The position numbers are program-made. From a virus (lineage: Duplodnaviria > Heunggongvirae > Uroviricota > Caudoviricetes), in the IMG/VR virus record IMGVR_UViG_2684622669_000015, positions 1 through 6,210 of that record: a DNA stretch of 6,210 bases. One strand, written 5' to 3'. This document shows, piece after piece, positions 1 to 3,000 of this stretch; positions within the stretch are counted from its first letter, which is position 1, and each line of letters opens with the position of its first letter.

Positions 1-3000
1 CGAATCCCCACCGTGGTGGGACCTCCCGGGCCAAAGGGGGAACAGGGGCCCGCTGGCCCTCAGGGGCCGAAGGGGGATAAGGGAGAGCGTGGTGACACCG
101 GCCCTGTCGGGGCAACCGGCGAACGGGGGCCGAGAGGAGATACTGGTCCGGCAGGCCCGCAGGGGCCGAAAGGCGACAGGGGAGAGCGGGGAGAGACCGG
201 TCTGACGGGAAATGCAGGTCCACAGGGGCCAAAGGGAGATACCGGTGCGGCAGGCCCGGCAGGCCCACAGGGACCGAAAGGAGAAACAGGTGCGGCAGGT
301 CCGGTGGGGGCTACCGGACCTCAGGGGCCGAAGGGAGACCCGGGCGAGACACAAATCCGTTTTCGTCTGGGGCCGATGAGCATTATTGAGACAAACAGCT
401 ATGGCTGGTTCCCGGATACAGATGGTGCGCTCATCACCGGACTGACCTTTCTTGACCCCAAAGATGCCACACAGGTTCAGGGGATGTTTCAGCATTTGCA
501 GGTCAGATTTGGTGACGGGTCATGGCAGGATGTTAAGGGACTGGATGAAGTGGGCAGTGATACAGGCAGAACTGGAGAATGACATGAATATTTTGAGAAA
601 GCTTATGCAGAGCCTGTGCGGTTGCGGAAAGCATGATGACTGTGAAAACGGGCAGTCACTTACAGCACAACTGCGACTGGGGCCGGCAGACATCCTGGAG
701 TCAGATGAGAATGGTATTATCCCGGAGCAGGCCAGGGTAATCACTCAGGTGGTGATACTGGATGCGGATAAAAAGCAGATACAGTGCGTGGTAAGACCGC
801 TGCAAATTCTGCGTGCTGACGGGACGTGGGAAAATATTGGCGGGATGAAGTAACCCGACAGCTTCACAAAACCGGAGTCCGGCTCCGGTTTTTGTTGGCA
901 TGCCATGGTGATGTTTGTTAGGAAAGCAAAGGTGGCAAAACTGCTGGAGGTTTTGTGGTTGAGTATGCCAATATAATTAATAGATTAAAGAGTTAGTTGT
1001 GAAGAAAATATGGATAAACAGGACGACGAATGCTTTCACCGATAAGGACAACTTTCCATAACTCAGCAAATATAGTGCAGAGTTCACCCTGTCAAACGGT
1101 TTCTTTTGCCGGAAAGGAATATGAGTTAAAGGTCATTGATGAAAAAACGCCTATTCTTTTTCAGTGGTTTGAACCTAATCCTGAACGATATAAGAAAGAT
1201 GAGGTTCCAATAGTTAATACTAAGCAGCATCCCTATTTAGATAATGTCACAAATGCGGCAAGGATAGAGAGTGATCGTATGATAGGTATTTTTGTTGATG
1301 GCGATTTTTCAGTCAACCAAAAGACTGCTTTTTCAAAATTGGAACGAGATTTTGAAAATGTAATGATAATCTATCGGGAAGATGTTGACTTCAGTATGTA
1401 TGACAGAAAACTATCAGATATTTATCATGATATTATATGTGAACAAAGGTTACGAACTGAAGACAAAAGAGATGAATACTTGTTGAATCTGTTAGAGAAA
1501 GAGCTGAGGGAAATTTCAAAGGAGCAGGATTCTTTGATTTCTATGTATGCAAAGAAAAGAAATCATGCATGGTTTGATTTCTTCAGAAATTTAGCCTTAT
1601 TAAAAGCAGGAGAGATATTCAGGTGCACATATAATACAAAGAATCACGGTATTTCATTCGGGGAGGTGTGTATCTATCTTGATATGGATATGATACTTAC
1701 AGGTAAGCTTGGTACAATATATGCTCCTGATGGAATTTCAATGCATGTGGATCGTCGTAATGATAGTGTAAATATTGAAAATAGTGCAATAATTGTTAAC
1801 CGTAGTAATCATCCTGCTCTACTTGAGGGACTTTCTTTTATGCATAGTAAAGTAGATGCTCATCCATATTATGATGGTTTGGGGAAAGGAGTTAAGAAAT
1901 ATTTTAACTTTACACCATTACATAATTATAATCATTTTTGTGACTTTATTGAGTTTAAACACCCTAATATGATCATGAACACAAGTCAGTATACATGCAG
2001 TTCATGGTAAATGAATTTGATAAAGTTTATTCTGTTGTAATAAATGATTTGCATGGTATTAGGTATCAACATGAAAATTCCCTCATTACAGTCCAACTTC
2101 AACTTTTCCGCCCCGGCAGGATACTCTGCTCCCATTGCTCCTAATCGTGCTGAAAATGCCTATGCGGATTACGTTTTGGATATAGGCAAGCGAATACCAC
2201 TTTCCGCAGCAGATTTAAGCAACGTATACGAAAGTGTAATTCGTGCCGTCCATGACAGTCGTGGCAGACTCATTGATCAGCATACGGTCGATATGATTAG
2301 TAATACTATACTTGATGCTTTGAGCCGCTCATAAACTTTTCGTGATGCCGTAAGCTATGGCATTCATATTCAGGATGCTGCAGATCGCAACGGATGAAGA
2401 GACATCGTTGTTGACAGTCTGGAAGAGGTATCGGGTGTTACTGAACCGTGTTGATACGTCAGTATCTCCAGATTTCGAGGGCCAGTAATACCTGATTTAT
2501 AGTTCGTAAACGTTCGTCTGACGGGATGCTGGAAGGATGAATGAGTTGCCAGATACTCAAAAACAATAGTTAATTTCCAGTTTTTTGTTGTCATGTCATG
2601 GTGATGTTTGTTAAGAAAGTAAAGATTGATTCATTTTGAAGGTTGAAATGTATGCTATCACCATCTTCTGTAAATTTGGGGTGTTCATGGAATTCTTTAA
2701 CCAGAAACCTGACTTCTCCTGACAGTCGTATTTTATCCTCTGTAAGGGATGCAGCTGCTAGCTCGGATAATGGGGCGCAAGTAAAGGTGGGCAACAGAAC
2801 ATATCGTGTTGTTGTCACTGATAATAAGTTTTGCGTTACAAGAGAAAGTCATAGTGGTTGCTTTACTAATCTGTTGCACAGGCTGGGATGGCCTAAGGGA
2901 GAGATTAGCAGGAAAATTGAGGTGATGCTGAATTCATCGCCAGTGAATAGGACTATGGAAAGAGGTGCTGTTCATTCGAATAGACCTGATTTACCTCCTG

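Follow-up and report, generated by a model that had tools for sequence, protein, structure and literature searches.

An open reading frame at positions 584-853 (plus strand) of the window, the whole 6,210-nucleotide stretch of viral DNA analysed here, almost certainly encodes an 89-residue stand-alone paralogue of PfC, the knob domain in which the collagen-like EPclA side tail fibre ends; the fibre gene lies directly 5' of this frame. It is a genuine, conserved gene and the final gene of a prophage tail operon. On balance, the best overall explanation, a conserved paralogue gene with a role accessory to the fibre, is a probable one. Under the most likely reading, the product is a separately translated PfC protein without a shaft, made together with the fibre and acting as a dispensable accessory, a function that we infer.

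The fibre gene enters the window from its 5' edge, beyond which its 5' end lies. Its collagen-like (Gly-X-Y) shaft, of the EPclA type, was mapped to positions 1-354 of the plus strand (Pfam Collagen PF01391, E = 2e-19). The PfC (Phage_fiber_C) domain follows at positions 355-546 of the same strand, corresponding to residues 115-178 of the fragment (PF06820, 117.2 bits, E = 4e-34, model positions 1-64 of 64), and a short C-terminal tail with the stop codon TGA (580-582) occupies positions 547-582. These last 12 codons are strongly conserved among the copies (dN/dS 0.12, dS 0.04). The orthologous O157:H7 gene, encoding 437 residues and located 3' of J and lom, is annotated as a 'prophage tail fiber N-terminal domain-containing protein'.

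The initial annotation had described the product of 584-853 as a diverged duplicate of the fibre C-terminal domain, and both pairwise alignment with statistics and profile comparison bear this out. By BLASTP against the fibre fragment (13-582), residues 29-88 of the small protein align with fibre residues 116-177 with 21 of 62 positions identical (34%), 60% positives, 2 gaps and an E-value of 8e-11; against a full-length 437-residue EPclA fibre the E-value is 2e-9. Residues 28-89 match PF06820 over the entire model (positions 1-64 of 64; 119.2 bits, E = 9.6e-35; gathering score 25 bits), the domain ending at residue 89 of 89, so that both segments match this family at about 1e-34. The similarity is far above chance, because the BLASTP alignment is significant and each protein separately matches the full model. 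Fourteen core residues of the domain (R31, P34, I37, G44, P47, I53, T54, L59, D60, L73, Q74, D79, G80 and W82) are invariant in both types in an alignment of eight sequences.

The EPclA architecture is PfN-PCoil-Col-PfC, and the isolated PfC of EPclA trimerises in SEC-MALLS, making it a trimerisation domain, a property published for the fibre PfC only (Ghosh et al. 2012, PMC3368898). The small protein gives no Collagen or PfN match in Pfam. It consists only of a 27-residue N-terminal extension followed by PfC, without the PfN-PCoil-Collagen-PfC architecture, and is therefore not a fibre. It belongs to the same family as the EPclA and EPclB PfC domains with full model coverage, but differs from these fibres in the absence of PfN, coiled-coil and collagen shaft, in the helix and the Cys-x-Cys motif of its 27-residue extension, and in being only 29-34% identical to the fibre PfCs. 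No NCBIfam model matched the small protein, and a PDB sequence search returned nothing at E ≤ 1.

The junction between the two genes is compact. The fibre stop codon TGA (580-582) is followed by a single C (583) and by the ATG of the small ORF (584-586), which lies in the +1 frame relative to the fibre gene and ends with TAA at 851-853. Codons 1-27 (584-664, plus strand) encode the N-terminal extension, with a predicted short helix at residues 3-11 and then an LCGCGKH motif, while positions 665-853 (plus strand) encode the PfC domain (PF06820, residues 28-89) and the stop codon. A Shine-Dalgarno sequence, GGAG, can be read at positions 574-577 of the plus strand, within the final fibre codons and 6 nt 5' of the ATG. 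The start 1 nt past the fibre stop, with its own Shine-Dalgarno sequence, is thus as initially described, and TGA-C-ATG with GGAG 6 nt upstream provides signals suited to translational coupling with the fibre gene. The junction reads ...GGAGAATGACATG in 83 of the 84 copies examined, with the same 1-nt gap, and GGAGGATGACATG in the remaining one; the encoded length is 89 residues in all 84. No promoter-like site was found in the 400-1100 interval, and, to judge by its position, the ORF is expressed with the late operon and not from a lysogenic promoter.

The pair recurs widely in relatives, a point that the initial annotation had proposed to check. The small ORF and the fibre PfC each matched 296 phage records, with an identical breakdown by organism name, and in two phage records of the same length they lie next to each other by coordinate. 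Among 5426 complete E. coli genomes, 697 contained at least 80% of a 1030-nt query made up of the 3' end of the fibre gene plus the small ORF, the median number of matching places being 12 per genome. The small ORF is obligately paired with PfC-ended fibres, in long-tailed lambdoid as well as short-tailed Stx phages. Purifying selection on the product is strong: dN/dS is 0.061 for its PfC part (dS 0.14, dN 0.009), 0.24 for its N-terminal part and 0.22 for the fibre's own PfC, values that are approximate because they are pairwise averages over recombining paralogues. A more distant locus, L083, combines a non-collagen fibre ending in PfC with a 79-residue PfC ORF, a 14-nt overlap, an AGGAGG sequence and a terminator. 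Between this locus and ours the small proteins are 52% identical and the fibres 41%, as compared with 29-34% between small protein and fibre. Judging from these identities, the duplication is old and predates the split of two divergent fibre lineages.

The small ORF itself was already known: domain databases and genome annotations list it, and a paper of 2016 describes it. Its product matches phrog_576 over its full length (residues 1-89 of 89, E = 2.8e-60), is named 'phage tail fiber C-terminal domain-containing protein' by PGAP, and shares 98.9% identity with its counterpart in records of short-tailed Stx2a phages. One GenBank record carries the label 'alternate tail fiber tip'. In phage Sp5, ORF68 is a non-essential 89-residue gene encoding PfC only, for which the role of an intragenomic 'reservoir' was proposed (Mondal et al. 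2016, PMC5155283). Sp5 lacking ORF68 still infects K-12, and ORF68 was listed among the non-essential late genes, while the fibre gene is essential (PMC5155283). Because this orthologue is dispensable on K-12, any role must be subtle or host-dependent.

By position, Sp5 ORF68 appears to be the phi24B gene named gp59 in the proteome file of a preprint. The phi24B virion proteome was reported to contain two peptides specific to the small protein, VITQVVILDADKK and ADGTWENIGGMK, with a count of 3, compared with 38-47 for fibre PfC peptides (bioRxiv 10.64898/2026.04.10.717836). The authors tag this entry 'Spike or just gp59?' (bioRxiv 10.64898/2026.04.10.717836), and the low counts could reflect contamination. 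The gene described here resembles Sp5 ORF68 and phi24B gp59 in its 89 residues, its full-length phrog_576 match and its location 1 nt 3' of a PfC-ended collagen fibre gene, and by sequence it is assigned to the phrog_576/Sp5 ORF68 orthologous group. The two settings differ, however. Here, in a CP-933K/Sp3-like prophage, the gene follows a long-tailed lambdoid EPclA fibre of the 437-residue type, itself located 3' of J and lom; in Sp5 and phi24B it sits behind the 645-residue EPclB, the lateral fibre of a podovirus. For phage 2B8 and 'atfT', a literature search yielded unrelated papers only. What our analysis adds is evidence that the small ORF is a selected gene with its own translation, descended from an old duplication, and not a reservoir for recombination.

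The N-terminal extension had been credited with four cysteines in its first 25 residues. There are in fact three, C12, C14 and C20, accompanied by the histidine H17; C68, the fourth cysteine, is inside PfC. Across 58 distinct alleles C12 and H17 are unchanged, C14 is kept in 57, and C20 is replaced by Arg in 38. Because this third N-terminal cysteine is Arg in most alleles, the idea of a zinc site or cystine knot formed by CGCGKHDDC is weakened. A lipoprotein signal, as in a Cor/Llp-like receptor blocker, was also considered and rejected: Cys14 is preceded by 13 residues, and K/R at positions 5-6, together with R10 in most alleles, break the hydrophobic stretch. The N-terminus likewise fails the PROSITE PS51257 lipobox pattern. 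A homologue with 52% identity (P0126) also has a helix and two cysteines (MTIFKKIKHCLFGCDKS). AF2 placed a helix at residues 3-11 in both monomer runs, with low confidence. The first run, on 8 sequences, gave a pLDDT of 53, and the second, on 15 sequences, a pLDDT of 69 with about 80 in the PfC part, good in one of five models only. A fold search with these weak models (pLDDT 53 and 69) gave no significant match.

The mechanism that we propose for the accessory role is tentative, its probability falling somewhat short of even. The small protein would fold like the fibre PfC into a homotrimeric knob without a shaft. The short N-terminal helix and the conserved Cys-x-Cys would occupy the position of the collagen shaft and may staple the trimer. 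Made alongside the fibre, the protein would be a dispensable accessory at its distal end, a cap or co-factor bound loosely or sub-stoichiometrically, rather than a tip that can be swapped in or a chaperone that is essential. A broader proposal is more doubtful, namely that the small protein represents a class of fibre accessory not yet characterised, in which the phage keeps a knob copy without a shaft, translated on its own, fixed since an old duplication and conserved more than the fibre knob itself. If so, this copy would sit on the fibre tip as a cap, lengthen the tip or compete with it, acting for instance as a second adhesin on natural hosts that bear O antigen, or as a decoy after release. 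In EHEC and EPEC, prophages that carry Shiga toxins and type III effectors have the gene at the end of their tail operon. Any modulation of adsorption by the small protein would bear on the movement of such prophages between strains, and an accessory of this class could affect the spread of Stx- and effector-carrying prophages despite its dispensability on K-12.

The suggestion of a fibre-associated factor, made in the initial annotation, fits the obligate pairing, the coupled start and the strong purifying selection. One specific version of it, a Tfa-like chaperone or template at the tip that would aid folding or trimerisation of the fibre C-terminus, like lambda Tfa or T4 gp38, and then mostly be released, is nevertheless unlikely. 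The gene does occupy the lambda tfa position, directly 3' of the side-fibre gene, is always paired with a PfC-ended fibre, and has only a tfa remnant (2357-2488) downstream. Coupled translation would place its product beside the nascent fibre C-termini, and a sub-stoichiometric level in virions would suit a helper that is mostly released. However, the small protein has no match to Caudo_TAP (PF02413), the family of lambda Tfa, or to any chaperone family in Pfam and NCBIfam at E ≤ 0.1. In addition, recombinant EPclA and isolated PfC trimerise in E. coli without the small protein, and Col-PfC refolds unaided (PMC3368898); Sp5 without ORF68 makes infectious particles although the fibre gene is essential (PMC5155283). 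The resemblance to Tfa concerns the location immediately 3' of a side tail fibre gene and a type that changes along with that of the fibre C-terminus. By sequence the small protein is not similar to Tfa; it copies the fibre's own knob rather than having a separate fold, and the literature indicates that, unlike Tfa, it is dispensable for trimerisation and infectivity (PMC3368898, PMC5155283).

The other part of the initial interpretation, a spare or alternative distal tip, corresponds to the 'intragenomic reservoir' that Mondal et al. 2016 proposed and to the GenBank label 'alternate tail fiber tip'; no mechanism for it is visible. It would make the small ORF a silent or semi-silent cassette that replaces the fibre PfC through recombination or a programmed +1 frameshift and so alters host range, which we consider quite improbable. 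The two modules do belong to the same domain family and directly adjoin each other in the same orientation, and the idea has been raised before (Mondal et al. 2016, PMC5155283, and the GenBank label). Rare chimeric database proteins also exist, P0064 joining collagen to a small-type PfC and P0121 joining the small-ORF N-terminus to a fibre-type PfC; P0064, however, starts within collagen repeats at the edge of a contig, so it may be an assembly artefact.

The longest exact word common to the two PfC coding segments is 9 nt, no direct repeat was found between them, and in codon-aligned form they are 52% identical, and 42% at third positions. Identity of this order falls below what homologous recombination needs, and recombination between the segments is unlikely because no common word exceeds 9 nt. 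Since the small ORF lies in the +1 frame, fusion would need a +1 shift; at the site GGA GAA UGA C the last sense codon would move from GAA to AAU without re-pairing, so that the stop is not a prfB-like slip site. A frameshift signal was likewise not found by Mondal et al. 2016 (PMC5155283). The phi24B mass spectrometry database did include hypothetical fusion entries, Fusion_6159_FS1 and FS2, but the small-ORF peptides in those data are all common to the unfused ORF, with no junction peptide among the entries listed (bioRxiv 10.64898/2026.04.10.717836). Moreover, a cassette would not need the ATG, the Shine-Dalgarno sequence and the N-terminal extension that are conserved under purifying selection in 84 of 84 copies. 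Frameshift fusion and the recombination reservoir were thus rejected as the main explanation, for want of a slip site and of a common word longer than 9 nt.

The known switching systems of Mu (S/S' with U/U', G segment) and P1 (C segment) similarly hold two versions of a distal fibre module side by side. In the Mu G and P1 C segments, a site-specific invertase acting with inverted repeats swaps C-terminal exons in frame. Here, by contrast, the copies are in direct orientation and in different frames, each with its own start. A search for an invertible cassette gave, in the 300-1100 interval, a single inverted match of 12 nt, which is at chance level; there is no invertase in the window and no recombinase ORF in its tail end.

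It is very improbable that the small protein is a free decoy knob, that is, a shaftless PfC trimer that would be freed at lysis or act in the lysogen, occupying the fibre ligand and limiting wasteful adsorption or superinfection. It looks like a soluble copy of the presumed binding knob without the shaft, its PfC is conserved more than that of the fibre (dN/dS 0.06 versus 0.22), and its presence in virions is marginal. A CMAT clone covering the small ORF reacted with serum against lysogen cultures, but this clone also spans the fibre 3' end (PMC3342100). Against a decoy, the protein has no signal peptide and departs from the lipobox rule, its position points to the late operon, with no promoter-like site in 400-1100, and it is only 34% identical to the fibre PfC, so that a common ligand is not implied.

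Finally, a non-functional remnant, in which an earlier cassette exchange displaced the 3' end of a fibre gene, which stays open only because it is young, has a near-negligible probability: although such prophage tail regions are mosaics rich in remnants, and the window has a truncated nleC and a tfa fragment, this reading is already contradicted by the selection data (dS 0.14 versus dN 0.009 in the PfC part), and against it also stand the 84 of 84 intact copies of identical length with conserved start and Shine-Dalgarno sequence, the 52%-identical orthologue with the same architecture beside a different fibre, and the detection of small-protein peptides (bioRxiv 10.64898/2026.04.10.717836).

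The conserved tail operon ends directly 3' of the small ORF in an intrinsic terminator. At positions 868-896 (plus strand), RNA folding gave a terminator-like hairpin, AAAACCGGAGU-CCG-GCUCCGGUUUU, followed by UGUU, with a fold of -22.1 kcal/mol (z = -3.3) that none of 200 shuffles equalled in stability. The hairpin (868-892) was not listed by a consensus terminator scan, which missed it because the U-run forms part of the stem. It is kept in related loci, whose sequences diverge 3' of it, and the GC content drops past about position 900, from 53% to 33-37%. The effector cargo starts beyond a boundary that the small ORF and its terminator mark. Further downstream, a Caudo_TAP (tfa) remnant lies at positions 2357-2488, and nleC is truncated in the window.

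The product of the small ORF (window 584-853, 89 aa) is a stand-alone paralogue of the C-terminal domain of the collagen-like fibre (PfC), separately translated and under selection, whose gene is coupled to the fibre gene and ends the operon. The initial annotation had aligned this product with the non-collagenous C-terminal domain of the fibre. In a pairwise BLASTP alignment, residues 29-88 matched residues 116-177 of the fibre fragment with significant similarity (34% identity, 62 columns, E=8e-11), and the full 64-position model of PF06820 was matched by each protein separately, at 119 bits for the small protein and 117 bits for the fibre (cut-off, 25 bits). 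In addition, phrog_576 matches the small protein end to end. The proposed start 1 nt after the fibre stop, with its own Shine-Dalgarno sequence, was also confirmed: the fibre TGA (580-582) is followed by a single C and the ATG at 584, with GGAG six bases upstream. The cysteine count aside, the observation is real and has firm statistical backing; only three of the four cysteines assigned to the first 25 residues are found there (C12, C14, and C20, plus H17), the fourth, C68, lying within the PfC domain.

The recurrence of the fibre/small-ORF pair was established in 84 collected copies (the window, 80 IMG/VR loci, the O157 locus, and the related locus L082). The small protein is 89 aa long in 84/84 copies, and the junction GGAGAATGACATG is present in 83/84. 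Within the phage collection, 296 records are matched by the small protein and 296 by the fibre PfC, with an identical breakdown of organism names, and their coordinates are adjacent in two phage records of equal length. When 1.84 billion representative proteins were searched with a profile, just 79 matches were returned, and the family is therefore narrow; the close homologues that carry an organism name belong to Escherichia coli, E. albertii, and Citrobacter rodentium. Among the search matches was also a small, divergent homologue of 79 aa (P0126, 52% identical). At its locus, L083, a non-collagen fibre with a terminal PfC is followed by the small ORF (14-nt overlap with the fibre, AGGAGG ahead), a terminator, and effector genes. 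Because identity is 52% between the small proteins and 41% between the fibres, versus 29-34% between small protein and fibre, the duplication is older than the split of the two fibre lineages, with both copies kept as a two-gene module.

Two peptides specific to the small protein, VITQVVILDADKK and ADGTWENIGGMK, are listed in the purified-virion proteome of phi24B (2026 cryo-EM preprint supplement, bioRxiv 10.64898/2026.04.10.717836), which shows that the small protein is made. Each was counted 3 times, compared with 38-47 for the fibre PfC peptides, and the authors labeled the entry "Spike or just gp59?". These data suggest a virion association that is sub-stoichiometric at most, with contamination possible. 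An antiserum to phi24B lysogen cultures reacted with a CMAT clone that spans the small ORF, but this clone includes the fibre 3′ end as well (PMC3342100).

The most likely mechanism is that the small protein would form a shaftless trimeric knob, in which its N-terminal helix and conserved Cys pair may stand in for the collagen shaft, and would be a non-essential accessory of the fibre's distal end. EPclA trimerises by itself and the Sp5 deletion is viable, which weakens a role as a Tfa-like assembly helper, while release of the protein as a decoy knob finds no direct support.

The initial annotation was right in seeing a second copy of the fibre domain, PF06820 being matched in both proteins, but its spare or alternative tip is left without a mechanism, whether as a recombination reservoir or as a frameshift fusion. 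Between the two PfC coding segments, exact shared words are no longer than 9 nt, identity in a codon alignment is 52% (42% at third positions), and no direct repeat was returned. Homologous recombination is poorly served by so little shared sequence. Relative to the fibre, the small ORF lies in the +1 frame; GAA, the last sense codon ahead of UGA, cannot re-pair in that frame. In favor of a reservoir, two chimeric database proteins join small-ORF and fibre sequence. P0121 has the small-ORF N-terminus and a fibre-type PfC end, and P0064 (L082 4-291) has collagen and a small-type PfC. The latter opens at a contig edge, inside collagen repeats, and may therefore be an assembly artefact rather than a real recombinant. 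A 12-nt inverted match, CAGCATTTGCAG / CTGCAAATTCTG (window 490-501 and 800-811, 92% complementary), at equivalent positions of the PfC domains is probably due to chance.

Averaged pairwise Nei-Gojobori estimates for 58 distinct alleles gave a dN/dS of 0.061 (dS 0.14) in the PfC part of the small ORF and 0.24 in its N-terminal 27 codons, with 0.22 in the fibre's own PfC for comparison. These values, rough because the copies are recombining paralogues, contradict the reading of the small ORF as a decaying remnant.

Downstream, the folding energy of a hairpin at 868-892, with U-rich sequence behind it, is -22.1 kcal/mol (z=-3.3). This hairpin is kept in related loci, whose sequences diverge directly after it, and GC falls from 53% to 33-37% past about position 900, just 3′ of this terminator. 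This makes the small ORF the final conserved late gene ahead of variable effector cargo, and the GC drop and divergence at 850-1000 mark the boundary of that exchangeable cargo.

The window corresponds to the right end of a CP-933K/Sp3-type lambdoid prophage, opening inside the collagen-like side tail fibre gene (13-582, + strand). The small ORF (+ strand) is followed by nleB2 (1030-2010), a truncated nleC (2044-2334, +), a tfa remnant (2357-2488, +), nleH (2643-3533), nleD (3819-4463, +), and an espV-like ORF (4924-6159, - strand), with an IS2 fragment at the window edge (about 6120-6210, the final bases matching IS2). The 96-aa nleC ORF covers only positions 1-64 of 251 of the Peptidase_M85 model, the O157:H7 gene being 1020 nt long, and is probably a pseudogene in this strain. 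The nleD ORF encodes 214 aa, versus a 699-nt gene in O157:H7. The 411-aa ORF at 4924-6159 had no match in Pfam or NCBIfam, and other E. coli genomes label its DNA "secretion protein EspV". The 43-aa tfa remnant, stranded between nleC and nleH and also marked by PGAP in O157:H7, matches the C-terminal end of Caudo_TAP (positions 92-124 of 131, E=5.5e-12). Its presence suggests that the PfC-ended fibre, small ORF, and effector cassette took over from an older stf-tfa end. The O157:H7 counterpart lies 3′ of tape-measure, M, L, K, I, J, and lom and adjoins the bio operon; PGAP labels its products "prophage tail fiber N-terminal domain-containing protein" (437 aa) and "phage tail fiber C-terminal domain-containing protein" (89 aa). 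Window 2000-6210 was found in one piece in no complete E. coli genome.

The small protein is an ordinary, already catalogued family member. Its orthologue in the short-tailed Stx2 phage Sp5, ORF68, was described by Mondal et al. 2016 (PMC5155283) as non-essential, 89 aa long with PfC alone, and a possible "reservoir", and in one GenBank record the gene is called atfT, "alternate tail fiber tip"; both the observation and its interpretation, a published speculation, were therefore already public. The window product shares 98.9% identity with the copy found in short-tailed Stx2a phage records, of which one has the length of the Sp5 genome, whereas the surrounding 1030 nt (window 1-1030) reach at best 96.1% in full-length matches among complete E. 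coli genomes, at loci annotated nleB2. This is mosaicism.

No solved structure related by sequence to the small protein was found. In AF2 monomer models, a short N-terminal helix is predicted at residues 3-11, together with a disordered CGCGK segment and a beta domain of six strands; pLDDT peaked at 69 (about 80 across the PfC part), a level that only one of five models reached. This beta-rich prediction agrees with the published CD of PfC, which has little helix (PMC3368898). Fold searches with these models gave nothing significant, and several of the best BFVD matches, all weak, are tail fibre proteins. Finally, the collagen-containing P0145 (565 aa), from the representative-protein search, carries four tandem modules that resemble PfC's C-terminal half (one example, VVVLDADAKTATGQMGILQVRRADGTWMEIPALK, is 50% identical over 34 aa, E=1e-7), and the half-module may therefore be a more widespread unit associated with collagen.
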